The notes under the pieces were generated by a model. The model did not search any database, had not been told where the DNA came from, and saw only the letters and a program-made list of their open reading frames with translations. A stretch of 64,000 nt of DNA from Elusimicrobiota bacterium. GTDB lineage: Bacteria > Elusimicrobiota > Elusimicrobia > UBA1565 > UBA9628. This document shows, in pieces, positions 28,226 through 55,065 of the stretch; the first letter of the stretch is position 1, and each line of letters opens with the position of its first letter. Position numbers and translations under genes: made by a program. The stretch lies in assembly GCA_016218545.1 (NCBI GenBank), contig JACRDQ010000020.1, positions 34,455 to 98,454 of the forward strand. The letters run 5' to 3'.

Positions 28226-28270
28226 GAAATGCAACATGGCTGGTGTCAGACACCAGCCATGTTGCATTTC
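28226..28270. repeat. 45-bp perfect palindrome, copy 1 of a dispersed palindromic repeat family.
   Basis: GAAATGCAACATGGCTGGTGTC-A-GACACCAGCCATGTTGCATTTC. Intergenic, between two minus-strand genes. Confidence 0.6.
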
Positions 28271-28279
28271 TCCGGAGGA

Positions 28280-28873
28280 CTAGTTGCTGTGGAAGATGAC
28301 GGAGGGATTCGAGGGGGAATGCTCGGCCGAGGCGTAGGCCCCCAGCTCGCCGGTCGCGGACTCCTCGGTCGGCAGGATATAGAGCCCCCGCTGGGCTCCC
28401 AGCCGCACGACCCCGTCCTGGACCACGGCCTGGAACACGATGTTGGGGATGCCCACATCCAGGGGGTCCAGGTCCACGGCCTTGGCGAACGCAGCCTCCG
28501 GGATGCGGCACTCGGCGACCACGGACACGGCTTTGCCCGGGATTTCGTTGATGTTGGCGGTCAGACCGTCGCGGCCCTTGGACCGGCAGGAGTACTCCCA
28601 GGTCTCCCCGTCGCGCATGAAGACCTGCAGGGTGAGCTTGGAGTCCTTGGTCAGACCGCGACCGCCGCTGTCGAGGCCGAACTCGAAGCGCACCCGGTAC
28701 CCGCGCCAGCCGTAGCGGTCGTGGAATTCCACGGGCCTTCCCGCGGGATAGAAACCGCCTTCGTCCTGGAGCGTGAACGGGGCTGCCTCAGCCGCTGACG
28801 CGGCCGCCACCAGCAGGACGGATAGGACCGCCTTCCCGAAAAGACCCCTGGCCAGGGAGCTCGGCGCTTCCAT
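28280..28873 (-). CDS. Hypothetical secreted protein.
   Basis: Signal-peptide-like N-terminus (AVLSVLLVAAASAAEAAP) and plausible protein composition. The antisense ORF is an artefact. Confidence 0.4.
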   Translation of the reverse strand: MEAPSSLARGLFGKAVLSVLLVAAASAAEAAPFTLQDEGGFYPAGRPVEFHDRYGWRGYRVRFEFGLDSGGRGLTKDSKLTLQVFMRDGETWEYSCRSKGRDGLTANINEIPGKAVSVVAECRIPEAAFAKAVDLDPLDVGIPNIVFQAVVQDGVVRLGAQRGLYILPTEESATGELGAYASAEHSPSNPSVIFHSN

Positions 28874-28944
28874 ACGGATAGTCTACCCCCTCTTCGTGAA
28901 TAAGTGGTTTCAGCCGTGTTACGGAGTCGGCCCGGACCCTGGCC

Positions 28945-30213
28945 CTACCGGCTCCGGCGGCGGGTCACGGGCTTGTAGTCCGGAGGCGGGAGGAAGTCCT
29001 CGGCCGGGATCTCCTCGACGGAACTGAAGGCGTCGAGCTCCGTGTTGATCTGGTAGAACGGCACGGGGATGTGCTTGGAGACCTTGGCGGTCTTGGTCGC
29101 CGCGGTGTCGACCGCGCCCGTGACCTTCCTGCGCAGCTCCTCCTGGAACACGGCGTACTCGGGGTAGCGCCGCGTGCGCGGCAGGCGCTGGGAACGGGCG
29201 CGGGAGAGCAGGCCCCCGCGTTCCCCTGAGCCGTCGGAGCCTGCCATGCCGTCGATGATCCTCCAGTCGCCGCTGAAGTCGATGGGCCGGAAGTGCGCGC
29301 GGACCGCGTAGATGGGCGCCACGGGCACGAGCCGGCTGGGCCGGCCGGGCTCGCTGGGCCAGGGTGACCGCTGGATCTTCCCGGGCTTGCCCGGCTTGCC
29401 GGCCGGGACCTGGGGCTCGGCCGCGATGGGCTCGGCGTCCTTCCACCACGAGATGGAGCTGGCCAGGGGATAGCCCGGCACGTCCGGGAAAGCCTCCCGG
29501 ACCTGGGTCAGGAGCTCCTGGACCTCCCCCTCCGGGACCTTCAGGTAGGAGGCCACCTCGCGCATCTGGTAGGTCCAGTAGTCCAGCGGGGAGAACCTGC
29601 CACCCGTGGCCTTGCGATATTCGTTCTCGAAGGCGGCCAGGTCCAGGAGACCCTCCTGGAGTTCCCCGGTCAGCGGGGCCAGCCAAAGGTCCTGCTCCAT
29701 GCGGGCCATGCGCTCAAGCCCCATGCCTTCGTCGAGACGCACCTTGACGCCGATCCGGTAGTGCCCCCACCGGAGGTCCCCCACGTCGCGGTCGAGCCTC
29801 CCGCGCTCGACTTCGATCTGGCTGGAGACGATGTGCGCCTGGGGGGCCTGCGCCGCCGCGCCGGCCGAGCCCTCGTAGCGGATGTCGGTCAGGGGCGCGG
29901 TCTCGACGGTCCGGGCCTTGGGGTCCACGTGGAGGGATACGCCCCGGTCGAGGTCTACGATCTCGATGACCCGCACCGGGTCCTTGACGGCCTTGCGCCC
30001 CACCCTCAGCTTGCGCGCGTGGCCCGAGACCAGGCGCATCTTGCGGCCCGAGACCTGGATCCACGTCTTGCCGAAGAGGCCGTTCTCGCCGCCGCTGGTC
30101 TGGGACTGGACGATCTGCACGAGCGAGAGGTCGGCCAGGGCCGGGGAGGCCAGGGCCAGCAGGAGCGTCAGGAGGGCGTTCATCGCCAAAAAAGACAGCG
30201 CCCGGGCGTCCAT
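28945..30213 (-). CDS. Hypothetical secreted protein.
   Basis: N-terminal signal peptide (MNALLTLLLALASPALA), 422 aa, non-repetitive sequence. Confidence 0.45.
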   Translation of the reverse strand: MDARALSFLAMNALLTLLLALASPALADLSLVQIVQSQTSGGENGLFGKTWIQVSGRKMRLVSGHARKLRVGRKAVKDPVRVIEIVDLDRGVSLHVDPKARTVETAPLTDIRYEGSAGAAAQAPQAHIVSSQIEVERGRLDRDVGDLRWGHYRIGVKVRLDEGMGLERMARMEQDLWLAPLTGELQEGLLDLAAFENEYRKATGGRFSPLDYWTYQMREVASYLKVPEGEVQELLTQVREAFPDVPGYPLASSISWWKDAEPIAAEPQVPAGKPGKPGKIQRSPWPSEPGRPSRLVPVAPIYAVRAHFRPIDFSGDWRIIDGMAGSDGSGERGGLLSRARSQRLPRTRRYPEYAVFQEELRRKVTGAVDTAATKTAKVSKHIPVPFYQINTELDAFSSVEEIPAEDFLPPPDYKPVTRRRSR

Positions 30214-30237
30214 GCCCGGGCGCTGCTCAGGGCACGG

Positions 30238-30852
30238 CTACCGGTCCCCGGTCTCCTTCTTGGCCTTGGGGGCCGGGGAGGAGTCGGCGGCCTCCGCATC
30301 AGGCTCATCGGACTTGACCTCCTCGGCCAAAGTCTCGATGTCGGAGGAATACTTGCTGATCTTGCCCTTCAGCTCGTCCTTGAGGGTAGCGTCCCCGCCG
30401 CCGCTGTACTTGGCGGCCTCGCGGTCGAGGTCGTCGAAGGCCTTCTCCGCCCGCTGGTAGACGTTCTCCTCGATCTCCGCCTTGAGCTCGACCGCCTTCT
30501 CGTAGAGGCCCTCGAGCTTCTCGTATCTCCGGTCGAACTCCGCGACGGACAGGTGGCTCTTGTTGTGCATGTCGCAGAGGACCTTGTACCTGCTGATGAG
30601 CTGCTGGCTCATGCCGTTCCACTGGACCCCGGTCTGCCTGCCCCAGGTGACCTCAGGGCCGACCTTGGCCGCGAACGCCACGCTCATCTTGAAGCCCAAC
30701 GACAGCGATTTCTTCTTGGTGTCGTGGATCCGGCAGTCCAGCTTCTCCCTCTTGATCTTCTTCGCGCAGGCGTCGTCCACGCACATCGTGACCTTCCCCG
30801 CCCAGGAAGGCGAGGCGTTGAGCGCCAGGGCCAGCATCGCGATCAGGTGCAT
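30238..30852 (-). CDS. Hypothetical secreted Lys/Glu-rich protein.
   Basis: Signal peptide MHLIAMLALALNASPSWA. Coiled-coil-like charged C-terminus. Local GC is slightly lower than the surroundings. Confidence 0.4.
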   Translation of the reverse strand: MHLIAMLALALNASPSWAGKVTMCVDDACAKKIKREKLDCRIHDTKKKSLSLGFKMSVAFAAKVGPEVTWGRQTGVQWNGMSQQLISRYKVLCDMHNKSHLSVAEFDRRYEKLEGLYEKAVELKAEIEENVYQRAEKAFDDLDREAAKYSGGGDATLKDELKGKISKYSSDIETLAEEVKSDEPDAEAADSSPAPKAKKETGDR

Positions 30853-30879
30853 AGCATCCTCCTCAATGATCCGGCCACG

Positions 30880-31914
30880 CTACTGCGGCTTGCCGCAGGA
30901 AGGGCAGAACTTGGCTCCAGGGGCGGTCTCCGCCTTGCAGTGCGGGCAGGCCGCGGGCCCCGCGGGTTTGCCGCAGGACGGACAGAAGCGCGCTCCTGCC
31001 GGCACCGCGGCCTTGCAGGACGCGCACGCGGCCCCCACGCCTCCGGCCGCGGCCTGGCCCAGGACCCCTCCGACGATCTGCCCCATGCCCGCGCCCGCGC
31101 CGACCCCCATCCCCAGGCCCATGCCCGCGCCCATGGCGCCGCCCTCGGCACCCGCCGCCTTCTCCATGGTGTCGAAGGTGCGCTTCGTCTTGTAGCCCTC
31201 GCCCAGGATGTCCATCTCGGCCTTGTCCGCCATCGCCTTCTTGAGGCGCATCACGCTCTCGTCCGTCTCGGGAGCGTCGATCGAGTTGACGAAGAAGTTC
31301 ACTATTTGGACACCGAACTTGGCGAAGTCGTTCTCCATCTTCTTCTGGAGGGCCTCGGAGATCTCCTCAAGGTAGGCGTTGATCTCCAGGATGGTCACCC
31401 CCTGCTTGATGACCGTCTCGGCCAGGTAGTCCTTGATGCGGGTCAGCAAGGCCCCGCGGAAGTGGCTGCTCAGGGCATCCACCGTGAACTCGTTCATGGT
31501 GCCGGAGAGCTGGACCACGAGCTTGCGCGAGTCCGCGACGCGCACGCCGAACTGGCCGTGGGCCCGGACCGGCAGGAGCACCTTGAACTTCGGGTCCTGG
31601 AGCTGGATCGGGGTCGTCGTGCCCCACTTGACGTCGAGGTTGACCGCCTTGTTGACGAAGTAGATCTCGGCCGCGAAGGGGGTCTTGTTGCCGAAGGGCA
31701 GCTTGATGAGGGCCCGGAGGAGCGGGATGTTGGAGGTCTCGAGCGTATGGGTGCCCGGGCCGAGGATATCGAGGAGCTGGCCGCCCTTGAAGAAGAGGGC
31801 CTCCTGGGACTGGTTGACGATGACCTGGGTGCCCCAGGTCAGGTCGTCGGGAGGGTGGCGCCAGATGAGGACGTTGCCCGGACCGTCGTATTTTACCCGA
31901 TCGATGATAGCCAT
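30880..31914 (-). CDS. SPFH/Band-7 family protein (YdjI-like) with tandem C-terminal zinc-ribbon motifs.
   Basis: N-terminus MAIIDRVKYDG...LIWRHP...QVIVNQSQEALFFKGGQ is typical of the YdjI-type SPFH family. C-terminus has two CxxC-x12-CPxCGKP ribbons. Confidence 0.75.
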   Translation of the reverse strand: MAIIDRVKYDGPGNVLIWRHPPDDLTWGTQVIVNQSQEALFFKGGQLLDILGPGTHTLETSNIPLLRALIKLPFGNKTPFAAEIYFVNKAVNLDVKWGTTTPIQLQDPKFKVLLPVRAHGQFGVRVADSRKLVVQLSGTMNEFTVDALSSHFRGALLTRIKDYLAETVIKQGVTILEINAYLEEISEALQKKMENDFAKFGVQIVNFFVNSIDAPETDESVMRLKKAMADKAEMDILGEGYKTKRTFDTMEKAAGAEGGAMGAGMGLGMGVGAGAGMGQIVGGVLGQAAAGGVGAACASCKAAVPAGARFCPSCGKPAGPAACPHCKAETAPGAKFCPSCGKPQ

Positions 31915-31921
31915 GGTGACC

Positions 31922-32719
31922 TTAGCCTAGCATATCCTCCCCGGCTTTTTCAGGCGACCCTGCCCGGGCGCGGAGCCGGACCAGGACCGTCTGAAAATCC
32001 TCGGGCGGCTCGCACCGCACGGTCCTCACGGCCCCGCCCGCGGACCGGAAAGAGACCGAAAGGCCGTGGAGCATGAGGCGCGGAGCCCCGCCCACGGGGC
32101 GCTCCTTGCCGTAGAGCCGGTCGCCCAGGATGGGGTGCCCGGCGGCATAGAGGTGGACCCTGAGCTGGTGTCGGCGGCCGGTCACGGGCGCGGCCTCGAG
32201 CAAGGAGGCGTCCCGGAAGCGCTCGAGCACGCGCCAGCGCGTGAGCGCGTCCTTGCCCCCTTGCGCCACGCCCATGCGTCCGGAGCCGAACTCCTTGATG
32301 GGGCGGTCCATGGAGCCGTCGCGCTCCACGACGCCCTGGACGGCCGCGAGATAGGTCTTGCCGGTCTGCCGCCGCTCGAACTGGAGGCACAACGCGCGGT
32401 GGGCCGCGGGGTCCTTGGCGAAGAGCACGACACCGCTCGCGTCCCGGTCGAGGCGGTGGACCACGAAGACCTTGCCGCGGGCCGCCTCGAGCTCCTCCCT
32501 GAGGCTGGGGGCCGCAGACGCCCCCCGCCCGGGGATGACGTCGACGCCGGAAGGCTTGGCCAGGGCGAGGACGCCCTCGTCCTCGTAGAGGACCGTCAGG
32601 CCTCGACCGAGTTGAGGAACCGTGCGCTCTCCTCCGGCAGGGAGGTGTTGATGAACATCCCGGACCCGAGTTCGAAGCCCGCGGTCTTGTTGAGCCGCAC
32701 CACGAGGCTCAGGTACCAA
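31922..32719 (-). CDS. RluA-family pseudouridine synthase.
   Basis: HRLDRDASGVVLFAK catalytic motif, YLAAVQG and LHLYAAGHPILGD motifs. The true start is probably internal, because the track start overlaps the galT 3' end. Confidence 0.7.
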   Translation of the reverse strand: MVPEPRGAAQQDRGLRTRVRDVHQHLPAGGERTVPQLGRGLTVLYEDEGVLALAKPSGVDVIPGRGASAAPSLREELEAARGKVFVVHRLDRDASGVVLFAKDPAAHRALCLQFERRQTGKTYLAAVQGVVERDGSMDRPIKEFGSGRMGVAQGGKDALTRWRVLERFRDASLLEAAPVTGRRHQLRVHLYAAGHPILGDRLYGKERPVGGAPRLMLHGLSVSFRSAGGAVRTVRCEPPEDFQTVLVRLRARAGSPEKAGEDMLG

Positions 32720-33588
32720 TGGAAAGCCTCGGTCGTGCCCCGGTCGAGCGGAGCGGACTGGATGACGTAGTTATAGGCCGGGTCGCCCAGGCCCTTGTCG
32801 ACCTTCCTGAGCACGCCCTGGAGGACCCCGGCCAGGTCTGTGATCTCCTGGTCCATGATGTCGCCGAAGCTCGCGGTGTGCCTCTTGGGCAGGATCCAGA
32901 TGTGGAACGGCGAGAGCGCGGCGAAGAGCACGAAGGCGGTGAAGTGCTCGGTGTCGGCCAGGATGCGCGCTCCCTGCTTGCGCTCCTCCTCGATCATCCG
33001 GCAGAAGACGCAGCGGGCGTTGCGCTGGTAATACTTCTCCGCCTCGTCCATGCGGTGCCTGATGCCCGAGGGCACGACGCTCGAGCCCACGAGCTGGCTG
33101 TGGGGGTGCTCCAGGGAGGTCCCGGCAGGCTCGCCGTGGTTCTTGAAGATGAGGGTCAGCGAGACCTTCTCCCGCTTGACGCATTCCTGGAAGCGGGCGC
33201 GGTAGACGGCCAGCAGGTCCTTCATCTCCTGGGTGGAGAGGTGCGCGGGATGCTTGGCGTGGGAGGGAGAATCGATGATGACCTCGTGGATGCCCTCGCT
33301 CGGGAGCATGTGATAGACGCCGGCCTGGGTCTTGGGGGCCGGCGCTTCCTCGACGAATGCAGGGAACTTGTTCTTGACGGCCCGGACCTTCCACCTCTTG
33401 GGTTCCCCGAGGGAGAAGACCGCCTCGGATCTATCCTCATTGCCCGGGCAGAACGGGCAGGCGGCGCTGTGCTCCGGGCCGGCGGGCCTGGGCTTGAGCT
33501 GGGATTTGAACTCCTCAGGCCTCAAGGCTCGCTCCGTGGCGACGATCACCCACTCCTTGGTGGCGAGGTTCTGTCTCAGTTCAGGCAT
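32596..33588 (-). CDS. galT: Galactose-1-phosphate uridylyltransferase (HIT-family GalT).
   Basis: CPFCPGNE zinc motif and HPHSQ active-site motif. ATG at 33588 has a GGGGGAG RBS. Confidence 0.85.
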   Translation of the reverse strand: MPELRQNLATKEWVIVATERALRPEEFKSQLKPRPAGPEHSAACPFCPGNEDRSEAVFSLGEPKRWKVRAVKNKFPAFVEEAPAPKTQAGVYHMLPSEGIHEVIIDSPSHAKHPAHLSTQEMKDLLAVYRARFQECVKREKVSLTLIFKNHGEPAGTSLEHPHSQLVGSSVVPSGIRHRMDEAEKYYQRNARCVFCRMIEEERKQGARILADTEHFTAFVLFAALSPFHIWILPKRHTASFGDIMDQEITDLAGVLQGVLRKVDKGLGDPAYNYVIQSAPLDRGTTEAFHWYLSLVVRLNKTAGFELGSGMFINTSLPEESARFLNSVEA

Positions 33589-33627
33589 GTCTCCCCCTGC
33601 CGGCACCGGCAACCGCATTCTACAATA

Positions 33628-34446
33628 TCAGGAGTCACGGACGAGCTTGGCCTCCTCCGGGCCTTCGACCGGCACCACGACCCCGACCGCGGAACCCACG
33701 GCCACGTCGCTGAAGAGGCGGTAGCCCACCCGGCGGCTGACCGAATGGTCCGCGCCCCCGTGGGAGAAGCGGACCGTGAGCTCGACCTCTCCCCACGGAC
33801 CCGAGGAGAGCTGCCGGACCGAGGTCACGATGCCGCGGAAGAGCCTGGCCTGAGCGCGGCGCCTGCCGCGCGCCCTGGCCCACAGGAAGAGCAGCAAGGC
33901 CGCGGGCAGGACCGCGAGGACGAAGAGCCCCACGTCCAGGAGCCGGATGGGGAGCTTGCGCATCGCTCCGAGCACGGCCCCGGCCGCGGCCGCGGCGGCG
34001 CCGCCCGAGGCGAGCACGAAGGCCAGAGCCGCCACCCCGTCGGACCCGAAGACCGTGGCGGTCTCCATCTCGGTCAGGGGCCGGCCCTCGGGCCCCGGCC
34101 CCCCTCGAGCAGGGGCTGGGGCGACGGCGGCCTGGAGCTTCTCCACCTCGCCCGCGTCGAACCAGGTCCCCCCGCACCCCGGACAGGCCTCGAGCACGAT
34201 GTCGGCCGACTCGAGCCTGGCGTGGAGCATCATCTTCTGGCACCGCGGGCAGGAGAAGTCGGAAGGGGAGACCGACCGGAACGCCGCGCCGAGCTCCTCG
34301 TAGAGGCGCTGGGGCTGGCGCACGAAACGGTAGATCTCGGATTTGTCGAGCCAGGCTCCGGAGCAGGCCCGGCAGAGGTCCACGGCCAAGCCGGGGCCGG
34401 CCTGGACCTCGGTGAGCTGGGCGTCGCGGCACTTGGGGCACTTCAT
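33628..34446 (-). CDS. Zinc-ribbon (zf-TFIIB-like, two copies) membrane protein.
   Basis: MKCPKCRDAQL...CRACSGAWLD and CPRCQKMMLH...CPGCGGTWFD motifs, followed by two hydrophobic helices. Start at the ATG of MKCPKC with an upstream GGAG. Confidence 0.5.
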   Translation of the reverse strand: MKCPKCRDAQLTEVQAGPGLAVDLCRACSGAWLDKSEIYRFVRQPQRLYEELGAAFRSVSPSDFSCPRCQKMMLHARLESADIVLEACPGCGGTWFDAGEVEKLQAAVAPAPARGGPGPEGRPLTEMETATVFGSDGVAALAFVLASGGAAAAAAGAVLGAMRKLPIRLLDVGLFVLAVLPAALLLFLWARARGRRRAQARLFRGIVTSVRQLSSGPWGEVELTVRFSHGGADHSVSRRVGYRLFSDVAVGSAVGVVVPVEGPEEAKLVRDS

Positions 34447-34477
34447 GGCGCTCCGATTATAATATATCGTATCCCCC

Positions 34478-35236
34478 ATGAGCGCGGTCCCTGCACTGCC
34501 CGGCGGAAGGAAGTCCCCGGCCCGCGTGGGCTGCTGCGGGTTCCCGGTGGCGCAGTCCACGTACTACGGGACCTTCGACGTGGTGGAGCTCGACTCGAGC
34601 TTCTACCAGCCCCCGAAGCCCGCCACGGCGGAGCGCTGGCGCGCCGAGGCTCCCGAGGGCTTCCAGTTCATCGTCAAGGCCTGGCAGCTCATCACCCACC
34701 TTCCCACGAGCCCGACCTACCGCAAGCTCGGAGCCGACCACCCGGCCAGGATCGAGCGCTGCGGCCACTTCCGGTCCAGCCCCGAGGTGCGGCTGGCCTG
34801 GGAGCGGACCCTGTCGCTGGCCAGGAGCCTCAAGGCCTGCATGGTCCTCTTCCAGACGCCGCCGAACTTCCGGCCCGACCCGGACAAGCTGCGGGACCTC
34901 TACGCCTTCTTCGAGAGGATCGAGCGCGGGAACTTCCTCGTCGCGTGGGAGCCCCGCGGACCGGGCTGGAACGAGCGCCTGGTCGGCCGCATCCTCTCCG
35001 ACCTCAAGCTCGTGCACGCCGGAGACCCCCTGGCGGCCCCTCTCCAGGGCCGCATCGGCTACTTCCGCATGCACGGCGCCTACGAAGAGGGCCGCATCGT
35101 CTACCGCCACCGCTACTCGGACGCCGAGCTCGCCAAGGTCGCGAGCCTCGCCCGGGCCCAGCCCACCTACGTCCTCTTCAACAACTCGGAGATGTTCCGG
35201 GACGCGGGACGCTTCTCCCTGCTCCTCCGGCGGTGA
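34478..35236 (+). CDS. DUF72 family protein.
   Basis: RVGCCGF...FDVVELDSSFY...W...GFQFIVKAWQ matches the conserved DUF72 N-terminal signature. Diverges from the previous gene across a 31-bp AT-rich spacer (ATTATAATATAT). Confidence 0.7.
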   Translation: MSAVPALPGGRKSPARVGCCGFPVAQSTYYGTFDVVELDSSFYQPPKPATAERWRAEAPEGFQFIVKAWQLITHLPTSPTYRKLGADHPARIERCGHFRSSPEVRLAWERTLSLARSLKACMVLFQTPPNFRPDPDKLRDLYAFFERIERGNFLVAWEPRGPGWNERLVGRILSDLKLVHAGDPLAAPLQGRIGYFRMHGAYEEGRIVYRHRYSDAELAKVASLARAQPTYVLFNNSEMFRDAGRFSLLLRR

Positions 35237-35259
35237 CCTCCCTCCGACCGCGACCAGCC

Positions 35260-35970
35260 ATGCCGCCGACCCCGCTGCCGCAGAGGCTCGCAGACCTGCT
35301 CGCCCGGGACGATATCCATGGGGCGGTCCGCGAGTACCACGAGCTCCTCAGGACGGAGCCGGACCGAGACCGGCTCCGCGTGACGTTCGCCGAGCTCCTG
35401 GCCGCGCACGGCTGGGCGGAGGAGGCCTTCCAGCAGGTCCGCCGCTCCCTGCCGCGAGCCGAAGGCGAGGAGGGCCTCCTGGAACGGTGTCTCGCGGTCC
35501 TGGACTCGCTCGAGCTCCCCGCGGCCAGGGAGCTCGCAGCCTCATGCAGGACCGGCCTCGCGGACCGTCGGAAGCGGGCGCGCCGGCTGCTCCTCGCCGG
35601 GACGGGGCTCGGGCTCGTCTTGACCCTGGCAGCAGTCCTCCACGGGCTCGGCCGCGACGCGAAGCCGGGGCCTGAGCTCATCTGCCGCGAGTTCCCCAAG
35701 GGAGCTCCGGTCAACGGCCTTCCCGAGCGGGCCTCCCAGCTCGAGCTCTACCGTCTGGTGCTCGAGACGCTTGACGGAAGGACCGTCCTGGACAAGCCCA
35801 TGGCGGCGCTCACCCCTCAGGACCTGGCGGCGCTCCAGGAGCGTCTGACCGGGCTCGAGGGCCGGGCGGTCCTCACCAACCCTCCTTCCATCTCGGTCAA
35901 CCGGTGGTGCGTGGTGGAGTTCGCCGGAGGGCGGGTCGTCAAGTCGGAGTCGCTCAGCCACGCCCCGTGA
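35260..35970 (+). CDS. Hypothetical membrane-anchored protein.
   Basis: In-frame ATG inside a longer artefactual ORF. One TM helix LLLAGTGLGLVLTLAAVL. Fills an otherwise gene-free gap. Antisense ORFs are Ser/Arg/Pro-rich. Confidence 0.35.
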   Translation: MPPTPLPQRLADLLARDDIHGAVREYHELLRTEPDRDRLRVTFAELLAAHGWAEEAFQQVRRSLPRAEGEEGLLERCLAVLDSLELPAARELAASCRTGLADRRKRARRLLLAGTGLGLVLTLAAVLHGLGRDAKPGPELICREFPKGAPVNGLPERASQLELYRLVLETLDGRTVLDKPMAALTPQDLAALQERLTGLEGRAVLTNPPSISVNRWCVVEFAGGRVVKSESLSHAP

Positions 35971-40486: not shown

Positions 40487-40491
40487 CCCCG

Positions 40492-41128: not shown

Positions 41129-41198
41129 ACGGTGCCTGGCATTGTATTAATTGTATTTTTCTCCAGAAAAATACAATTAATACAATGCCAGGCACCGT
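41129..41198. promoter_or_regulatory. 70-bp perfect AT-rich palindrome in the divergent MarC/MFS promoter region, a candidate operator.
   Basis: ACGGTGCCTGGCATTGTATTAATTGTATTTTTCT-CC-AGAAAAATACAATTAATACAATGCCAGGCACCGT. The arms are exact reverse complements. Confidence 0.6.
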
Positions 41199-47090: not shown

Positions 47091-47426
47091 ATGACCCGCA
47101 CATGGGCTCTCCTGGCCTCGGCAGGCCTCGCCTGCGCCTCCTTCCTGGCCTTCGCCGCGACCCGCGACAGCGCGCCCAGGGACCAGCCCCAGGTCGTGAC
47201 GGACGGATTCAGCGTGGATCAGCCCCCGGCCGTGATGCGGGACGCCGTGGCATCCGGCGGCCCCCTCATGCTGGGAGCGCGCTTCGTGCCTCCGCCCCCG
47301 GCCCTGTCAGCGGCGTTCGGCCCAGGCATGCCGGCCGGACCCAAACCAGCGGCAGCGGCGGGCCCCAAGAAGCCCGGCCTCATCAAGACCCTCCTGTCCC
47401 GCCTCAGGCGGGCCTGGCGGCGCTGA
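47091..47426 (+). CDS. Small hypothetical secreted Pro/Ala-rich protein.
   Basis: Signal-peptide-like N-terminus. Weak call. Confidence 0.3.
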   Translation: MTRTWALLASAGLACASFLAFAATRDSAPRDQPQVVTDGFSVDQPPAVMRDAVASGGPLMLGARFVPPPPALSAAFGPGMPAGPKPAAAAGPKKPGLIKTLLSRLRRAWRR

Positions 47427-47452
47427 TCCCGCTTCCCACCCCCTGGGCCATT

Positions 47453-47461
47453 TGATATCAT
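47453..47461 (+). promoter_or_regulatory. Extended -10 box TGATATCAT, predicted TSS at or next to the start codon (leaderless).
   Basis: TTTGATATCAT ends 7 nt before the ATG at 47468. The same motif occurs at 58891-58899 and 21369-21377. Confidence 0.4.
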
Positions 47462-47467
47462 GCGGCC

Positions 47468-47872
47468 ATGGGACTCATCTCCATGGCAGCGGTCGAGGAG
47501 CTCACGGACTCCAGGCTCTACGAGCATGAGGCGCGGCTCTTCCGCAGGAAGGTGGTGGACGGCGACCGCGTCGCCGCCATCTTCGAGCGCTTCGCGACGG
47601 AGGAGCGGCTCCACCACGAGATCCTCCGGGGCATGGCGACCATCGACGAGTTGGGCGCGGCGGCGACGAGCAAGCCCCCGTTCTCCGACTCCCTGCGCGA
47701 GTCCCTGAGGACCCACGTGGAGCGCGAGCTGCGCTCGATCCACGCCCTCGAGGAGCTCCTCAAGGACCGCGAGGACCCTCGCCAGCGGATCACGATCAAG
47801 GGCATCAGGGCCGACGAGAAGGAGCACCTGGAGACGGCGCTCCGCTACCTGAAAGCCCTGCAGTCCCGCTAG
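47468..47872 (+). CDS. Ferritin-like / rubrerythrin-like small protein.
   Basis: Two ExxH motifs (EERLHHE and EKEHLE) at the spacing typical of di-iron four-helix-bundle proteins. TGATATCAT box sits 7 nt upstream. Confidence 0.5.
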   Translation: MGLISMAAVEELTDSRLYEHEARLFRRKVVDGDRVAAIFERFATEERLHHEILRGMATIDELGAAATSKPPFSDSLRESLRTHVERELRSIHALEELLKDREDPRQRITIKGIRADEKEHLETALRYLKALQSR

Positions 47873-47884
47873 GCCGCGGCTCGC

Positions 47885-49165
47885 TCAGCGGGCCGCGGCC
47901 CTGAGGTCCGCGGCAGCTCCGATGAGGTAGAGGGCGGCGGCCGTGTTCTTCTTGACCGCGGGTCCGATGGCCGCGGCCCCGGGGTAGAAGGAGCCTCCCT
48001 CAAGCTCGAAGGTGAACCCGAAGATGCCGCGAGCCGAGTACATCCAGTCGTCGGTGTCTCCGCTCGAGGCGTAGAGCTCGCTCGACTGCTCCGCGACGTA
48101 GCCGGTCAGGGCCGCCATCTTCCCGGCCACGACCTTGAAGACCTTGAGATCCTCCTGGTTCGGGATGGGGTCGTAGGAGTAGCTCCAGGGCCAGAAGATG
48201 AGGCCGCCGTAGGAGTGATAGGACACGCTGGTCTTGATGTTCGCGCGGGACTCGACGAACTTCTTGATGGCCTGGGTCTCGGGCTCGGAGAAGGCCGAGG
48301 GGCCGTGATAGGTGTCGCTGTAAGGCTGGTCCGAGGCGCCGGCCCCGCCCCACTGGTAGCCGTAGTTGCGGTTCAAGTCCACCCCGATCTCCCCGCCCGG
48401 GTTGACCCGCATGTTCTTCCTCTGCCAGCGGTACTGGCTGGTCTCCACGTCGTACTCCACGCCGTCGGGGTTGACCATGGGCATGATGTAGATGTCCCGG
48501 GTCTCGAGCAGGGCCTTGATCTCGGGCTTGGCCCTGTTCTCCGCCAGGTGCACGGCCAGCATGAGCGGGACCTCGGTGCTCAGGTGCTCACGAGCGTGAT
48601 GCGCGCCCATGAAGAGTACGCCGGGCTTGGAGCTCGGCCCGGCGCCCGAGGCCGAGGAGTTGAAGCGCAGGACCCATAGCTCGCGGCCCTGCCAGGCCTT
48701 GCCCGCGGAGAACATGGAGACCAGGCCGGGGTTCTTCGCGGCCAGGCCCTTCATCACGGCCGTCATCTCGGCGTAGTCGTGGAACGCCTCGTCCTTGGCC
48801 GGGAAGCCCTTCTCAGCCAGGTCGCCGAGGGAGACCATCTCGTCGACGGTGAAGCCCTTGGCCTTGATGAGCGCGATGTCTTTGGCGTGCGCGGTGCCGG
48901 AGACCCGGTCGCCCTGGACCTCCTCGATGGACAATCCCATGGAAGCGAGGAGCGTGCGCTGCTCCTTGGTGGAGGCGTGCACCACGATCCAGTAGCGGTG
49001 GTCGTACTCGGGACCGGCCTTCCAACGCTTGGCGGAGCGCTTCCGCACGGGCTCGACCGAGCGCACGGCCTGGCGCACGGTCTCCTCGGAGAAGGAGGGC
49101 TCGGCAGCGGAGGACGAGAGAGGGATGAGAAGGGCGAGACAAAGACCGGTCAACGAGCTTCGCAT
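47885..49165 (-). CDS. Secreted M14 zinc carboxypeptidase.
   Basis: Signal peptide. HAREH zinc motif. NPDG and GVDLNRNY motifs. Confidence 0.85.
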   Translation of the reverse strand: MRSSLTGLCLALLIPLSSSAAEPSFSEETVRQAVRSVEPVRKRSAKRWKAGPEYDHRYWIVVHASTKEQRTLLASMGLSIEEVQGDRVSGTAHAKDIALIKAKGFTVDEMVSLGDLAEKGFPAKDEAFHDYAEMTAVMKGLAAKNPGLVSMFSAGKAWQGRELWVLRFNSSASGAGPSSKPGVLFMGAHHAREHLSTEVPLMLAVHLAENRAKPEIKALLETRDIYIMPMVNPDGVEYDVETSQYRWQRKNMRVNPGGEIGVDLNRNYGYQWGGAGASDQPYSDTYHGPSAFSEPETQAIKKFVESRANIKTSVSYHSYGGLIFWPWSYSYDPIPNQEDLKVFKVVAGKMAALTGYVAEQSSELYASSGDTDDWMYSARGIFGFTFELEGGSFYPGAAAIGPAVKKNTAAALYLIGAAADLRAAAR

Positions 49166-49234
49166 AGGGGACCTCCAGGCACGCCGGATACGTCCCCATT
49201 ATAGCATGGGGAAATTCATATAATCCCTCTCCTG

Positions 49235-50083
49235 ATGCCCGCGATCTTCGACTGCCGCTCAGTGGCGGCCCGGTACATGGACTGGACCGCCGGAGCCCTC
49301 AAGCAGCTCTCATCCACCCCGAAGCTGGCCACCCTGCTCGACGTCTCGCGCGGCGACCCCGGGAACCTGCAGTACCGGGACTACATCGACAAGGACAGCC
49401 GTCGGCTCGGCGTACCCTGCATCCATCGCGAGGTCCGCATGCCGGGCGAGGTGCCCACGGCCCTGGCCAGCCTCAACGAGGACCCCGACGTCACCGGCAT
49501 CATGGTGCTCTATCCCGTGGGCGCGCCCATGCGCGACGAGGAGGTCATGGACCTGGTCTCCCCCGCCAAGGACGTGGAGGGCCTGCACTCCACGAACCTC
49601 GGGTACCTCGTCAAGTACCGCCGCCTCCTCGACCAGGCCCGCGGGGTCAAGTGCGTGGTCCCGGCCACGGCCAAGGCCGTGGTGAAGACCCTCCTGAGCT
49701 ACCCCCAGGTCAAGGTCGAGGGAGCCTTCGCCGTGCTCATCAACAACTCCATGCGCGTGGGCAAGCCCCTGGGCCTCATGCTGGAGAACCTCGGGGCCAC
49801 GGTGGTCAAGTGCTACGACAAGACGCCCCGGTCCCTGATCGAGGACTGCGTGCGGCGCGCGGACATCCTGGTCACGGCCGTCCCTGACCCGGGGTTCAGG
49901 ATCGACCCCGGGTGGATCAAACCCGGCTCAGCCATGGTCGACGTCTCCTTCGAGGGCAACGTGGACTTCGAGGCCCTCAGCCGCGGCCCGGCAGGCATCG
50001 TCACCGCCCCGGACAACCGCATCGGCAGGGTCACGCGCGCCATGACCTTCGTGAACCTCGTCTATTGCGCCCAAGCCCGCTGA
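49235..50083 (+). CDS. folD: Bifunctional methylenetetrahydrofolate dehydrogenase/cyclohydrolase.
   Basis: VPATAKAV, NNSMRVGKPL and ADILVTAV motifs, and overall FolD architecture. Confidence 0.85.
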   Translation: MPAIFDCRSVAARYMDWTAGALKQLSSTPKLATLLDVSRGDPGNLQYRDYIDKDSRRLGVPCIHREVRMPGEVPTALASLNEDPDVTGIMVLYPVGAPMRDEEVMDLVSPAKDVEGLHSTNLGYLVKYRRLLDQARGVKCVVPATAKAVVKTLLSYPQVKVEGAFAVLINNSMRVGKPLGLMLENLGATVVKCYDKTPRSLIEDCVRRADILVTAVPDPGFRIDPGWIKPGSAMVDVSFEGNVDFEALSRGPAGIVTAPDNRIGRVTRAMTFVNLVYCAQAR

Positions 50084-50140
50084 CCCTGCCGGAATGCAAC
50101 ACGGCTGGTGTCTGACACCAGTTGTTGCATTCCGGCAGGG
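50084..50140. repeat. 57-bp imperfect palindrome, copy 2 of the family. Lies between the convergent folD and HExxH genes and may act as a bidirectional terminator.
   Basis: CCCTGCCGGAATGCAACACGGCTGGTGTC-T-GACACCAGTTGTTGCATTCCGGCAGGG. Shares GAATGCAACA...CTGGTGTC.GACACCAG...TGTTGCATT with copy 1. Confidence 0.55.
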
Positions 50141-50848
50141 TCAACGGGCGGACATGAAGTCGGTGAGGGCCTTCTCGCCCGCCGGGGTGATGAAGAACAG
50201 GTAGGAGCGCACCGCGAAGCCCTGCGGGTCCATGTCGTGCAAGAGGAGCTGGATCTGGTCCGCGGACTCGAAGGCGGTCCTGCCCTCGGCCTTGAAGCGC
50301 CGGACGAGCTCCTTTCGCTGCGGCTCGGCCATGGTGGCCAATTGGAGGGCGTAGGAGATGAACTCCCCCTGCTCGCGCGGGATGAGCTTGGGCGCGGCGG
50401 CGTAGGCGCGAATGGAGATGTGATGCCCTGCCTCGTGCGCGATGTAGGAGGTCCAGAGCTCGCGGCTCGGAGCCACTCCAAGAGGGGTCGCATCCGGCGG
50501 CGTTTTGGCGAAGACCCGGAAGGTCTTGATGTAGACCTCGTCCGTGTCCGTGTCATAGAAGCCGTGCACGTTGTCGATGATGGGGCTGATCTTCCGGTAG
50601 CTCTCCGGGAAGCGGTCCAACACGTGGATGGTGAGCCGCGCCTTCATCGGGTAGCCGCGCTCGGCCATGAAGCGCTCGGCTCTGGAGAAGCCCTCGCAGG
50701 CCGCGGGCAAGCTCGAGGCCTCGTCTGAGACCACCGTGACCCAGGAGGAGCCGCAGTCGCTGCGGACCCCGGCCGGTTGGGAGGAAGCGGCGCGGGCGGA
50801 CGCCGGCAGGAGCAGGAGAAGAGCCAGCCCGAAAGCCGCGTTCCTCAT
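50141..50848 (-). CDS. Secreted protein with HEAGHH (HExxH) motif, a putative zinc-dependent hydrolase.
   Basis: Signal peptide, single HExxH motif, no other recognisable domain. Confidence 0.45.
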   Translation of the reverse strand: MRNAAFGLALLLLLPASARAASSQPAGVRSDCGSSWVTVVSDEASSLPAACEGFSRAERFMAERGYPMKARLTIHVLDRFPESYRKISPIIDNVHGFYDTDTDEVYIKTFRVFAKTPPDATPLGVAPSRELWTSYIAHEAGHHISIRAYAAAPKLIPREQGEFISYALQLATMAEPQRKELVRRFKAEGRTAFESADQIQLLLHDMDPQGFAVRSYLFFITPAGEKALTDFMSAR

Positions 50849-50912
50849 GCCCCTATGATAATGGGAACGGCGGAGTCGGGCCAGGGCCGAAGAGTGCCCC
50901 TCCGGGTGGGTC

Positions 50913-51545
50913 CTAAGGACCCTGGTATTTCAAGCGGTAAGCGGCCCTGGCGCCCGGCGGCACCGCGTCGATGGGCTCGAATGCGAAGCCCTTGCGCTTG
51001 CCGATGACGGTTCGGACCGAGTCCGTCACGAGGATCTCCCAGGCCTTGGCCGTGTCTTCCCCGAGCTTGCTGGCGGCGTTGACCTCTGAGCCGAACACGT
51101 CGTGGTCTCCGATCCGCAGCATCCGGCCGAACCCGATGCCGACGCACAAGAGGATGTGCTCCTCCGCCTGACGGCTCTCGTTGTAGCCCTTGGCCGCGGC
51201 CTGCATGGCGGTCGCGCACTCGAGGGCGCGGGCGGGGCTCCTGAAGATCACCATCATGCTGTCCCCCTCCGTCTTGAGGAGGATGCCGTCATAGTCGTCG
51301 ATGCAGGGCACGAAGATGCGGGAGGACTCGGAGATGATCTGGAGGAAGTGGATGATGCCGAACTCCGAGACCTTGCGCGAGAAGCCCGAGAGGTCCGTGT
51401 ACATGACCGCCCACTCCTCGCCGAAGAGGTCCCAGATCCGCCGGTCGATGGCCGTCTTGTCCGCGCCCGGCGAGAGACGCTCCGCGATGAGCTTCTCCAG
51501 GCGGTCCTGCGACGCGCCGGTCCCGATCTTGGTGATGAGCGACAT
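50913..51545 (-). CDS. Stand-alone class III nucleotidyl cyclase catalytic domain.
   Basis: Complete cyclase core with AVMYTDLSGFS (first metal Asp), KTEGDSMMVIF (second Asp) and GSEVNAASKL motifs, and no other domain. 210 aa. Confidence 0.7.
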   Translation of the reverse strand: MSLITKIGTGASQDRLEKLIAERLSPGADKTAIDRRIWDLFGEEWAVMYTDLSGFSRKVSEFGIIHFLQIISESSRIFVPCIDDYDGILLKTEGDSMMVIFRSPARALECATAMQAAAKGYNESRQAEEHILLCVGIGFGRMLRIGDHDVFGSEVNAASKLGEDTAKAWEILVTDSVRTVIGKRKGFAFEPIDAVPPGARAAYRLKYQGP

Positions 51546-51636
51546 GATCCCTCCCTAGCGCCTGGCGGCCGCCGCCAGGAGCGGCCAGGCGGACAAGCAC
51601 AGGTCGGAGTATAGACGCTTGCGAGGGGGATGTCAA

Positions 51637-52110
51637 TCAACGCCCGGGGTAGCGGACGGCCTTGACGATCGACGCGCCCCAGTCTTCGACCTCGACGCGG
51701 TCTCCGGGCCTCTTGCCCAGGAGCGCCAGGGCGAGGGACGAATCCCAGGCGAGCTTCCCCCCGCCCTCCTCAGCCTCGTCCTGGCCCACGATGGAGACGG
51801 TCCGGACCGAGCCGTCCGCTCCCTGCAGGTCCACCGCGGCGCCGAAGCGCGCCTCGTCCGTGGGCACGGCCTTGGGATCCACCGGGACCGCGCTCCCGAG
51901 CCTGCCCTCGTAGTAGCGCAGGTCGCGCTTGAGCTCGCGCGCCCTGCGGCTCTCGCGGTCCGCGGCATCGAGCTCCGAGCGCAGGGCTTCGGCCTTCCTC
52001 ATGAGAGCGGCGAGCCCCTCTTGCGTCACGTAATTGGGCGCGGTGCTCTGGTGGCGCTCAGGCAGGTCGTCCGGATCGCCCGCGTCCTCCTTGATGAAGG
52101 CCCTGCTCAC
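51637..52110 (-). CDS. GreA/GreB-family (Rnk-like) transcription elongation factor homologue.
   Basis: C-terminal FKBP-like Gre domain (ALALLGKRPGDRVEV) and N-terminal coiled coil. Confidence 0.65.
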   Translation of the reverse strand: MSRAFIKEDAGDPDDLPERHQSTAPNYVTQEGLAALMRKAEALRSELDAADRESRRARELKRDLRYYEGRLGSAVPVDPKAVPTDEARFGAAVDLQGADGSVRTVSIVGQDEAEEGGGKLAWDSSLALALLGKRPGDRVEVEDWGASIVKAVRYPGR

Positions 52111-52189
52111 GTGATGATTGTATCATGGAAACCGAGCGGGGCCGCCTTTCGGCGGCCCCGCGCTTTGCTCGGTCCTTCCGGACCTCGCC

Positions 52190-54979
52190 CTACTTCTTCT
52201 TTTCCTTGGCCGAGGCCTGGGCCGCGGCGTGGATGGCGATGGGCACCCGGAAGGGCGAGCAGGACACGTAGTTCAAGCCCGTGCGGTGGCAGAACTCCAC
52301 CGACGCGGGCTCGCCGCCGTGCTCGCCGCAGATGCCGATCTTGAGGTCCTTGCGGGTCTTGCGGCCGCGCTCGACCGAGATCCGGACCAGCTCGCCGACC
52401 GCTTCCTGGTCGATGGTCTGGAACGGGTCGGCCGCGAGGATCTTCTTATCCAGGTACGGGTTGAGGAACCCGCCCATGTCGTCGCGGGAGAACCCGAAGG
52501 TCATCTGGGTCAGGTCGTTGGTGCCGAAGGAGAAGAACTGCGCGTACTGCGCGATCTTCCCGGACACCAGGGCGGCCCTCGGGATCTCGATCATCGTGCC
52601 CACGAGGTGGGGGATGTTCTTGACGCCCTTGCTCTTGAGAACCTCCTTGTAGACCTTCTCCACGAGCGCGTACTGGTCGGTCAGCTCCGCCTCGTTGCAC
52701 ACGACCGGGATCATGATCTCGGGGAAGGCCTTGACGCCCTCCTTCTGGAGCTCGGCCGCGGCCTCGAGGATGGCGCGGACCTGCATCTCCGTGATCTCGG
52801 GGTAGGTGACGCCGAGGCGCACCCCGCGGTGGCCCATCATGGGGTTGCTCTCGCGCAGGCCCTGGGCCCGCTTCTCGAGCTCCTCCATGCTGATGCCGAG
52901 GCTCTTGCCCAGCTCGCGCAGGCCCGCCTCCTGGTGCGGGACGAACTCGTGCAGGGGCGGGTCGAGGGTCCGGATGGTGACCGGCAGGTCGTGCATGGCC
53001 TTCATGGTGGCCTTGACGTCGGCCTTGACGAAGGGGAAGAGCTCCTCGAGCACCTTCCTGCGCTCGACCTCGGTCTTGGACATGATCATCTTGCGCAGGA
53101 TGAAGAGCGGCTTCTCCGAGCCCTTGCCGTAGAACATGTGCTCGGTGCGGAAAAGACCGATGCCCTCGGCGCCGAAGCGCCGGGCCCGGCCCGCGTCCTC
53201 GGGGGTGTCCGCGTTGGCGCGCACGCCCAGGCGCCGCACCGCGTTGCAGACCTTGGTGAAGTCCTCGAGGTCCTTGTTGCTCTCGCCGGCCTCCTTCATG
53301 GGCATCTCGCCCTGGTAGACGGTGCCCTTGGAGCCGTTGAGGGTGACCCAGTCGCCCTCGCGGAGGATGACGCCGTCGACCTCGACGGTCTTGTTGTGGA
53401 GCGAGATCTCGAGAGCCCCGCAGCCGACCACGCAGCACTTGCCCCAGCCGCGGGCCACGAGGGCCGCGTGCGAGGTCATGCCGCCGCGGGCCGTGAGGAT
53501 GGCCTGCGCCGCGCGCATGCCCTCCACGTCCTCGGGGTTGGTCTCCTCGCGCACGAGGATGACCTTCTTGCCCGAGGTGTTCCACGCGACGGCGTCCGCG
53601 GCCGTGAAGACGACCATGCCCTTGGCTCCGCCGGGTCCCGCGGGCAGGCCCTTGGCGATGGGCTTGGTCACGGCCTCGGCCTTGGGGTCCACGATGGGGT
53701 GGAGCAGCTCGTCGAGCTGGTCCGGGGTCACGCGCAGGACCGCCTCGTCCTTCGTGATGACCTTCTCCTTGAGCATGTCGAGCGCGATCCTGACCGCGGC
53801 CGGGCCGTTCCTCTTGCCCACGCGGCACTGGAGCATGTAGAGCCTGCCGTGCTCGATCGTGAACTCGATGTCGAGCATGTCGCGATAGTGCTCCTCGAGC
53901 CGGTTGCGGATGTCGTAGAGCTCCTTGTAGACCTTGGGCATGGCCTGCTCGAGGCTCCGGGCGTCCTTGGACTGCTCGCTGCGGCTCTGCTCGTTGATGG
54001 GCGACGGGGTGCGGATGCCGGCCACCACGTCCTCTCCCTGGGCGTTGATGAGGAACTCGCCGTAGAAGATGTTCTCGCCGGTCCCGGGGTCGCGGGTGAA
54101 GCCCACGCCCGTCGCCGAGTCGTCGCCGAGGTTGCCGAAGACCATGGACTGGACGTTGACCGCGGTGCCCCACTCCTCGGGGATCTTCTCGATCCTCCGA
54201 TAGGAGACGGCCCGCCTGCCCATCCAGGAGGCGAAGACCGCTCCGATGGAGCCCCACAACTGGGCCATGGGGTCGTCCGGGAAGGGCTTGTTGAAGACGG
54301 CCTGGACGCGCTTCTTGAACTCGGCGCAGAGGACCTTGAGGTCGCCCACGGTGAGCTCCGTGTCGGTCTTGTAGCCCTTGCGGCGCTTCATGTCGTCCAT
54401 GATGCGCTCGAGCTGCTTGCGGATGCCCTGGTCGTCGGCGGGCTCGATGTTCTCCGCCTTCTCCATGACGACGTCGGAGTACATCATGATGAGCCGGCGG
54501 TAGGCGTCGTAGACGAAGCGCTCATCGCCGGTCTGGCGGGCGAGGCCCGGGATGGTCTCCGGAGTCAGGCCCACGTTGAGGATGGTCTCCATCATGCCAG
54601 GCATGGACTTGCGGGCGCCGGAGCGCACGGACACGAGCAGGGGGTTCTGCGTGTCGCCGAACTTCTTGCCCGTGAGCTTCTCGACGTGCGCGAGGTTCGC
54701 GGCCACGCCTTCCTTGAGGCCCTTGGGGTAGGTCCGCTTGTTGGCCCAGTAATAGGTGCAGACCTCGGTGGTGATGGTGAAACCCGGGGGCACGGGCAGG
54801 CGCAGGCTCGGGTGGCCCGCCATCTCGGCGAGATTGGCGCCCTTGCCGCCGAGGAGGTTCTTCATGGATTCGTCGCCGTCGGCGCGTCCTCCGCCGAAGA
54901 AATAGAGCGTCTTGCCCGATTTCTTGACCTTTGTCGAGCTCGGGCCGCTCGACTTCTTGTTCAACAGCGCTGATGGCAT
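52190..54979 (-). CDS. ppdK: Pyruvate phosphate dikinase.
   Basis: Full-length PPDK with LLGGKGANLAEM, catalytic His region GGMTSHAALVARG and PEP-utilising C-terminal domain. AAGGAGG RBS precedes the ATG at 54979. Confidence 0.95.
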   Translation of the reverse strand: MPSALLNKKSSGPSSTKVKKSGKTLYFFGGGRADGDESMKNLLGGKGANLAEMAGHPSLRLPVPPGFTITTEVCTYYWANKRTYPKGLKEGVAANLAHVEKLTGKKFGDTQNPLLVSVRSGARKSMPGMMETILNVGLTPETIPGLARQTGDERFVYDAYRRLIMMYSDVVMEKAENIEPADDQGIRKQLERIMDDMKRRKGYKTDTELTVGDLKVLCAEFKKRVQAVFNKPFPDDPMAQLWGSIGAVFASWMGRRAVSYRRIEKIPEEWGTAVNVQSMVFGNLGDDSATGVGFTRDPGTGENIFYGEFLINAQGEDVVAGIRTPSPINEQSRSEQSKDARSLEQAMPKVYKELYDIRNRLEEHYRDMLDIEFTIEHGRLYMLQCRVGKRNGPAAVRIALDMLKEKVITKDEAVLRVTPDQLDELLHPIVDPKAEAVTKPIAKGLPAGPGGAKGMVVFTAADAVAWNTSGKKVILVREETNPEDVEGMRAAQAILTARGGMTSHAALVARGWGKCCVVGCGALEISLHNKTVEVDGVILREGDWVTLNGSKGTVYQGEMPMKEAGESNKDLEDFTKVCNAVRRLGVRANADTPEDAGRARRFGAEGIGLFRTEHMFYGKGSEKPLFILRKMIMSKTEVERRKVLEELFPFVKADVKATMKAMHDLPVTIRTLDPPLHEFVPHQEAGLRELGKSLGISMEELEKRAQGLRESNPMMGHRGVRLGVTYPEITEMQVRAILEAAAELQKEGVKAFPEIMIPVVCNEAELTDQYALVEKVYKEVLKSKGVKNIPHLVGTMIEIPRAALVSGKIAQYAQFFSFGTNDLTQMTFGFSRDDMGGFLNPYLDKKILAADPFQTIDQEAVGELVRISVERGRKTRKDLKIGICGEHGGEPASVEFCHRTGLNYVSCSPFRVPIAIHAAAQASAKEKKK

Positions 54980-55008
54980 GGTTCGCCTCCTTAAGATTGG
55001 CACCACAC

Positions 55009-55065
55009 ACTGGTGTCAGACGTCAAGACGAGACGGCACCTCAGGGTCCGACGTCAGACACCAGT
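55009..55065. repeat. Inverted repeat ACTGGTGTCAGACGTC...GACGTCAGACACCAGT sharing the CTGGTGTCAGAC core of the family. Lies upstream of ppdK.
   Basis: 16-bp arms with one mismatch and a 25-bp spacer. Located between the hemC-like stop and the ppdK start. Confidence 0.45.

Follow-up and report, generated by a model that had tools for sequence, protein, structure and literature searches.

The stretch of DNA analysed here, hereafter the window, comprises 64 kb of an Elusimicrobiota metagenome-assembled genome (MAG) with a G+C content of 69%, and it carries a small family of dispersed palindromes that share a short core. The pyruvate phosphate dikinase encoded in it (gene ppdK) shows 100% identity with a protein of an NCBI 'Elusimicrobia bacterium' MAG located on a 102-kb contig. 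Gene context was assigned from gene calls based on third-codon-position G+C (GC3) together with Pfam. Rfam 15 covariance models had no match in the entire window at gathering thresholds. The initial annotation had recognized three intergenic copies; a probable fourth member and a predicted promoter that overlaps the third copy are described here as well. Terms are borrowed from repetitive extragenic palindromic (REP) sequences, for which one description (PMC3337134) defines a REPIN as an inverted REP doublet folding as one long hairpin. The features are as follows.

28226-28270 (no strand): copy 1, type A, a perfect 45-bp palindrome, GAAATGCAACATGG-CTGGTGTC-A-GACACCAG-CCATGTTGCATTTC.
50075-50149 (no strand): copy 2, type A, a 75-bp palindrome with inner arms and core as in copy 1 and a 2-3-nt bulge.
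55004-55070 (no strand): copy 3, type B (REPIN-like doublet), inverted arms ACTGGTGTCAGACGTC / GACGTCAGACACCAGT around a 25-nt spacer.
41129-41198 (no strand): probable fourth member, type B-like, a perfect 70-bp palindrome with outer 13 nt ACGGTGCCTGGCA / TGCCAGGCACCGT.
55063-55091 (minus strand): predicted sigma-70-type ppdK promoter, TTGAAA-17-TATACT, from a consensus scan.

The 12-mer CTGGTGTCWGAC is common to copies 1, 2 and 3. With up to one mismatch it gives 6 strand-hits in the window against 0.65 expected, and the 15-mer TGGTGTCWGACACCA with up to three mismatches gives 5 matches against 0.72 expected; neither count was reached in any of 100 shuffles. The proposal of a three-copy family with a common core is therefore upheld, as is the intergenic placement of all three copies. 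Copy 1 is formed by two 22-nt arms (28226-28247 and 28249-28270) with 1 nt between them, and since the arms are 100% complementary the palindrome is as perfect as had been claimed. It lies 9 nt past the stop codon of an unannotated gene of 197 aa (28280-28873, minus strand) and upstream of the gene for a LonB-like protease. Copy 2 has the same organization, GAATGCAACA-YGG-CTGGTGTC-W-GACACCAG, and the arm and core of type A can be written as GAATGCAACAYGG-CTGGTGTCWGACACCAG. GAATGCAACA is confined to these two copies in the window, and they have no common sequence beyond the palindrome. For copy 2 the GAATGCAACA arms, the core and the convergent setting were described correctly; its extent, given as 50084-50140, was too short. 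The outer arms, GCCCGCTGACCCTGCCGG / CCGGCAGGGTCAACGGGC (27 nt, 96% complementary), contain the last codons and the stops (TGA for the plus-strand gene, TCA as the stop on the minus strand) of two convergent genes, a tetrahydrofolate-dehydrogenase/cyclohydrolase-like gene (49235-50083, plus strand) and a DUF6639 gene (50141-50848, minus strand). This outermost stem, covering the last 3 codons of two genes, is the sole gene overlap of the family in the window.

Copy 3 was said to retain the arms and to lie upstream of ppdK, and both statements are borne out: its arms, CACACACTGGTGTCAGACGTC at 55004-55024 and GACGTCAGACACCAGTATATG at 55050-55070, each contain the first 12 nt of the core, and the element occupies the hemC-ppdK spacer, 31 nt past the hemC stop codon (55102) and 25 nt ahead of the ppdK start codon (54979). 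The predicted ppdK -10 hexamer coincides in part with the arm nearer to ppdK, at the first bases (ACT) of that arm, so most of copy 3 would fall in the ppdK 5' leader. No other copy overlaps a predicted promoter.

Two close relatives, L117 (GCA_016209035.1) and L116, allow the same locus to be compared (fetched loci are cited by L numbers). L117, whose ppdK is 88% identical, has the architecture of copy 3 at the same hemC-ppdK position directly after TATACT, as the doublet ACTGGTGTCAGGCGTTAAG...CTTAACGCCTGACACCA followed by a ribosome-binding site. Relative to the window its arms carry compensatory changes (GAC/GTC to GGC/GCC), and its loop is much longer and unrelated. L116, whose ppdK is 90% identical, keeps TATACT in the hemC-ppdK spacer without the element; a homologous doublet, GGTGTCAGACGTTAAG-17 nt-CTTAACGTCTGACGCC, is situated 1.8 kb away, ahead of an ion-transporter gene, and its loop is similar to that of copy 3. 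The doublet type is thus dispersed and polymorphic among close relatives, and inverted doublets are found in the window (copy 3), in L116 (8090-8138) and in L117 (2907-2993). GTCAGAC stands on both sides of copy 3 and could be taken for a 7-bp target duplication; this reading was dropped because the arms in L116 and L117 are inverted, not direct. No direct repeats or target-site duplications are visible bordering any copy.

The palindrome at 41129-41198 is AT-rich, with 34-nt arms and a 2-nt centre. Its ends match ACGGTGCCWGGCA and correspond to a compensated core variant, GGTGCCWGGCACC, with AC in front of it, as in L206; an AT-rich palindromic insert divides the variant in two. The same variant brackets a transposase gene in L204 and L205. 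The palindrome occupies the intergenic region between two divergently oriented transporter genes (starts at about 41103 on the minus strand and about 41219 on the plus strand). A promoter scan of this region found none, and both arms were picked as hairpins by a terminator scan permitting G-T pairs. This element is probably a fourth copy, a doublet with a split core. All deviations from the perfect 13-mer in split-core arms (window 55012-55024 and 41131-41143, L116, L117) are A>G or C>T changes in the 3' half, and each of them replaces Watson-Crick pairing in the mini-hairpin by a G.T wobble. This pattern rests on at most about six independent events; it would fit recognition of a single-stranded hairpin and is suggestive only.

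The family signature is a 13-17-nt apical mini-palindrome, (CT)GGTG(T/C)C-W-G(A/G)CACC(AG). Copies 1 and 2 (type A) carry this core at the top of a long lower stem that is specific to the lineage, and the shared 12-mer lies at the centre of the palindrome and not at its ends. Type B, represented by copy 3 and probably by 41129-41198, consists of two inverted cores, both slightly degenerate, on either side of a spacer, as in a REPIN doublet. It is very probable that the copies belong to a dispersed family of palindromic elements that multiplies by duplication.

Species-representative public genomes were scanned for the 17-mer core, CTGGTGTCWGACACCAG, which gave at least 115 loci, across which the invariance of the core is built in by the search pattern. 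The majority of the loci listed come from Acidimicrobiia (Ilumatobacteraceae), Thermoleophilia/Gaiellaceae and other actinobacterial MAGs, with many loci per genome: one Ilumatobacteraceae MAG has at least 19 exact-core copies, and three other actinobacterial MAGs have at least 12, 11 and 10. An Isosphaeraceae MAG of 45% G+C has at least 4 core loci. The sequences flanking the core are palindromic, uniform within a genome and different between genomes (for example ATCACCT/AGGTGAT, TGTAACG/CGTTACA, GTATCAA/TTGATAC and TAGTTAACCGTT/AACGGTTAACTA). Among the loci listed, at least six of seven flank positions are complementary in 62 distinct copies, where binomial arithmetic gives a chance of about 0.1% per site. 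All four Watson-Crick types occur at 7-8 flank pairs of the 62-copy alignment, and the covariation score reaches 0.517, compared with 0.125 for shuffled data (none of 500 as high) and 0.12 or less when the partners are slid. Seven flank pairs served to select these copies; the eighth pair, which was unselected, is still paired in 77% of the sequences.

The positions of these sites relative to genes were obtained with a crude GC3-based gene caller. Among the listed loci 44 are tandem, 29 convergent and 5 divergent, 11 lie inside called open reading frames (ORFs) and 15 at contig edges; 73 of the 78 classifiable intergenic sites (94%) face at least one gene end, usually 2-25 nt past the stop codon. 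Clustering of 490 proteins around the 115 loci listed revealed no recurrent neighbour family near the element, which argues against a regulator or enzyme encoded beside every copy. A metagenome scan for the window-specific arm and core, ATGCAACANGGCTGGTGTCWGAC, gave no match. The scan of viral contigs for the core gave none either, implying that it is not a phage motif.

Some occurrences of the core are of other kinds. Six 21-nt motif repeats at 1485-1604 of L004, a Vicinamibacterales MAG, lie inside a coding region and encode a VSDT-type heptapeptide repeat; these matches were therefore set aside as false positives due to chance. A tandem array of a 92-nt unit (4.6 units) at 2047-2471 of L017, also seen in L020 and L105, comes from a MAG labelled Bifidobacteriaceae (69% GC); each unit contains GGTGTCAGACACC twice, without palindromic flanks. 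Closely spaced at 14-24 nt, 2-4 tandem units of the 13-mer or of its variant GGTGCCTGGCACC occur in MAGs of Treponemataceae, Isosphaeraceae and Thermoleophilia (L077, 3208-3292; L029, 4210-4250; L032, 2136-2164 and 6316-6343). One of these sites is directly behind a tRNA gene (L032) and one is beside a TATAAT box (L029).

A link to an enzyme emerged when the six-frame ORFs of all fetched loci were motif-searched, which yielded a single Y1/HUH protein, in L022. This 260-aa protein matches Pfam Y1_Tnp (PF01797; E 2e-10) and scores 79.2 bits against the cut-off of 80 for the NCBIfam model REP_Tyr_transpos, the REP-associated tyrosine transposase (RAYT) family. Its gene is bracketed by two copies of the element, one on each side, in inverted orientation. 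Further loci (L122 and L204-L208) were fetched by protein similarity and are thus independent of the DNA pattern; like L022, they are actinobacterial MAG or metagenome loci. The RAYT of L122 (81% identical) is bracketed by the same element, and those of L204 and L205 (63% identical) by TTAACCATT-CTGGTGCCWGGCACCAG-AATGGTTAA, where CTGGTGCCWGGCACCAG differs from the core by a compensated T>C / A>G change beside the centre. In L206-L208 (55% identical) the bracketing sequence is CACAAAGGTRAAC-GGTG(T/C)CAGACACC-GTTYACCTTTGTG, which has the same 13-mer and an unrelated lower stem. Among solved structures, E. coli TnpA-REP (4er8) matches the RAYT profile best, while ISDra2 TnpA chains match far more weakly, and profile search scores fall sharply past the five closest proteins. 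Weak Pfam matches indicate a C-terminal helix-turn-helix-like extension in this clade.

Copies of the L022 lineage found via their arms have either the canonical core or a core that differs from it by a single base. A one-sided extension (TTTGCAGGACGTC) is present in many of them, and its side correlates with a central A or T, so the unit is oriented. Both core variants and a hybrid coexist in this genome: at 2540-2600 of L045 the left half of a REP belongs to the GGTGCC/TTAACCATT subfamily and the right half to the GACACC/AACGGTT subfamily, which suggests recombination or half-conversion between subfamilies.

Because the copies are dispersed, palindromic and extragenic, and because their core brackets RAYT genes in other genomes, the suggestion of the initial annotation that they are REP-like elements is supported. 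The complete model, in which they are non-autonomous extragenic palindromes of the REP/REPIN type spread by a RAYT, is held with moderate confidence. The most likely route of spread would be a Y1/HUH enzyme of this type encoded by one gene elsewhere in the genome. It would recognize the core hairpin (GGTGTCWGACACC) in single-stranded DNA and cut and rejoin the strand beside it. An inserted copy, typically a few bases past a stop codon, would give the transcript a very stable hairpin that may block 3' exonucleases or impede readthrough, and in the case of copy 3 the hairpin would be located in the ppdK leader. Such effects on transcripts would be consequences of the insertions. We infer that the source Elusimicrobiota genome encodes an active RAYT of this clade and that the copies have effects on RNA.

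Besides the built-in invariance of the core in the genome scan, several observations weigh against this model. The 64-kb window and about 33 kb of its two close relatives yielded neither a RAYT nor any other transposase, and none was found in L116-L119. None of the best 120 matches of the RAYT profile, most of them nameless, bears the name of Elusimicrobia. Core flanks are absent at 79 of 80 metagenome loci of RAYT relatives with 35-53% identity and at L120 and L121, so the association between RAYT and core is limited to a tight clade. Only 3-4 copies are visible within 64 kb of the source, and no core was found within 37 kb in the more distant Elusimicrobia L202 and L203 (ppdK 79% identical). 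In classical REPs the 5' foot of the hairpin bears a conserved GTAG-like tetranucleotide, whereas no 5' head of the GTAG type is evident here; some actinobacterial copies start with (G)TAG, inconsistently.

A broader version of the model is put forward tentatively, and we regard it as rather less probable than not holding. It states that a single clade of RAYTs, together with its REPs, has retained one 13-17-nt apex, GGTG(T/C)C-W-G(A/G)CACC, in moving between at least three phyla (Actinomycetota, Elusimicrobiota and Planctomycetota), that this apex and not a foot tetranucleotide would be the recognition determinant of the enzyme, and that REP-RAYT systems may cross phyla. The wobble-preserving changes in the split-core arms would support its element of single-strand hairpin recognition.

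The rival readings are weaker than the REP/REPIN reading. The one that survives best is that the palindromes are transcript-end hairpins, arisen in place without a transposase and kept for an RNA function as bidirectional terminators, readthrough barriers or 3'-end stabilizers. Copies 1-3 form highly stable hairpins on both strands, with folding energies from -42 to -70 kcal/mol; the z-scores of copies 1 and 2 range from -9 to -11.5 (copy 1, -46/-42 kcal/mol and z about -9; copy 2, -67/-70 kcal/mol and z -11.5). They and most related copies are situated just past stop codons, often between convergent genes, and the stem of copy 2 includes the stop codons of both its neighbours. On the other hand, none of copies 1-3 is followed by a U-tract, their tails are not T-rich, and terminator scans of the window picked none of them, while the window has canonical hairpin-plus-T-run terminators at other places, such as behind the gene that ends at 19183. 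Because they lack a U-tract, copies 1-3 are not canonical intrinsic terminators, and the initial proposal of bidirectional terminators holds only in the loose sense of very stable hairpins past stop codons. An RNA role also leaves unexplained the identical core in unrelated lineages, the reuse of the arms at unrelated loci within a genome, the RAYT genes bracketed by the element, and the copies in a 5' leader or a divergent promoter region (copy 3 and 41129-41198). This explanation is considered unlikely, although an RNA role is compatible with the REP reading as a secondary effect of REP copies.

Less probable still is an operator, a double-stranded TGGTGTC-W-GACACCA site bound by a dimeric protein whose regulon would include ppdK. 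The core is a perfect 15-17-bp palindrome, types A and B share the linear 12-mer and not merely a helix, and the overlap of copy 3 with the predicted -10 box is conserved in L117; the tandem 13-mers beside a TATAAT box in L029, from another phylum, and the putative helix-turn-helix region of the RAYT clade would also suit a binding protein. However, the sites are biased to gene 3' ends and not to promoters, and their palindromic flanks are longer than any plausible operator and covary as a stem, which an operator does not require. These two properties make the operator claim of the initial annotation improbable as a main role. In addition, L116 has the same TATACT ahead of its ppdK without the element, no regulator gene is consistently adjacent to the sites, none was found in the window by gene calls and Pfam, and a search of one literature library for the 13- and 15-mer motifs gave no match. 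Look-alikes considered from general knowledge (sigma-54, GntR/FadR, the DasR dre site, matS and the GACAC of WhiA) were dropped since their spacing or context does not fit. Miniature inverted-repeat transposable elements of a classical DDE insertion sequence, with CTGGTGTCWGAC as terminal inverted repeat, would account for the two short inverted ends around a non-coding spacer in type B and for the presence/absence polymorphism between relatives, but this origin is highly improbable, given that no copy has a target-site duplication, that the 12-mer of type A is central, and that a DDE transposase with ends of this kind was not encountered, the sole enzyme found bracketed by the element being a Y1 RAYT.

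Several other repeats and genes were observed. L202 (Elusimicrobia bacterium GWA2_69_24) has a dispersed repeat of its own, about 77 nt long (3547-3623, 15491-15576 and 18447-18523) with ends CCGGCGAAAGCCGG...CCGGCTTTCGCCGG and unrelated to the core of the window; lineage-specific hairpin repeats seem common in the phylum. L116 contains another palindrome at 12859-12917, with 28-nt arms (GGGGTCAGGTCTGGACATCGGGACATTC and its reverse complement), in the convergent ppdK/cstA spacer. The LonB-like AAA+/S16 protease encoded beside copy 1 (24613-28119, minus strand) is unusually long (1168 aa), and about 690 of its N-terminal residues have no Pfam match. Six radical SAM proteins are encoded in the whole window, and several radical SAM and B12-binding radical SAM genes are clustered at 4246-13516 with genes for an AMP-binding enzyme and a peptidase U32-like protein.

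A recognizable REP/REPIN family is thus described in an uncultured Elusimicrobiota genome, as a new example of a known repeat class and not as a new regulatory system. To our knowledge, work on REP/REPIN-RAYT systems has been almost confined to Proteobacteria, and REP-RAYT systems are usually described as vertically inherited. The present findings bear on whether such inheritance is strict, and if one RAYT clade does account for the core in all the phyla concerned, the system would be a more interesting variant. The RAYT proteins P0121, P0123 and P0127 and the GGTGYCWGRCACC hairpin provide a testable pair of enzyme and substrate. For annotation, the hairpins can serve as marks of gene ends, and copy 3, in the leader of a gene of central carbon metabolism, may affect expression of ppdK.

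Three groups of known systems invite comparison. REP and REPIN elements with their RAYTs are well known, and the accounts considered here cover E. coli TnpA-REP, bacterial interspersed mosaic elements (BIMEs) and Pseudomonas REPINs (Bertels and Rainey, 2011, PMC3116915; Bertels et al., 2017, PMC5581495; PMC3337134). RAYT groups have no strong association with host taxonomy (PMC5581495). A search that combined REP terms with the phyla concerned here returned, among its best-ranked literature matches, none that dealt with both. The second group consists of IS200/IS605 transposons and their non-autonomous derivatives, the palindrome-associated transposable elements (PATEs), which use a Y1 HUH transposase and subterminal single-stranded DNA hairpins and leave no target-site duplications. 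The enzyme linked to the present family belongs to the same Y1 HUH transposase family (Pfam PF01797). In contrast to these transposons, the transposase gene appears to be single, bracketed by short repeats that far outnumber it. Thirdly, high-GC bacteria have bidirectional or 'I-shaped' hairpin terminators between convergent genes, and TRIT is a repeated hairpin motif of Mycobacterium tuberculosis. The palindromes described here resemble these in being stable GC-rich hairpins without a U-tract, directly past stop codons and symmetric so that both strands fold. They differ in that a single sequence family recurs at unrelated loci and in different lineages, and in that it also occurs in leaders, in divergent regions and around a transposase gene.

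The likeness to REP/REPIN-RAYT systems extends to short extragenic palindromes in multiple copies, mostly at gene 3' ends, to the presence of both singlets and inverted doublets, and to the single Y1/HUH RAYT gene between two inverted copies in the actinobacterial relatives. Here, on the other hand, the apical mini-palindrome is conserved and the lower stem varies with the lineage, the RAYT clade has a C-terminal helix-turn-helix-like extension, and the family occurs in Elusimicrobiota, Acidimicrobiia/Thermoleophilia and an Isosphaeraceae MAG, the systems described so far being mostly proteobacterial. What sets this family apart is that an invariant apex stands on variable lower stems and that at least three phyla harbour it.

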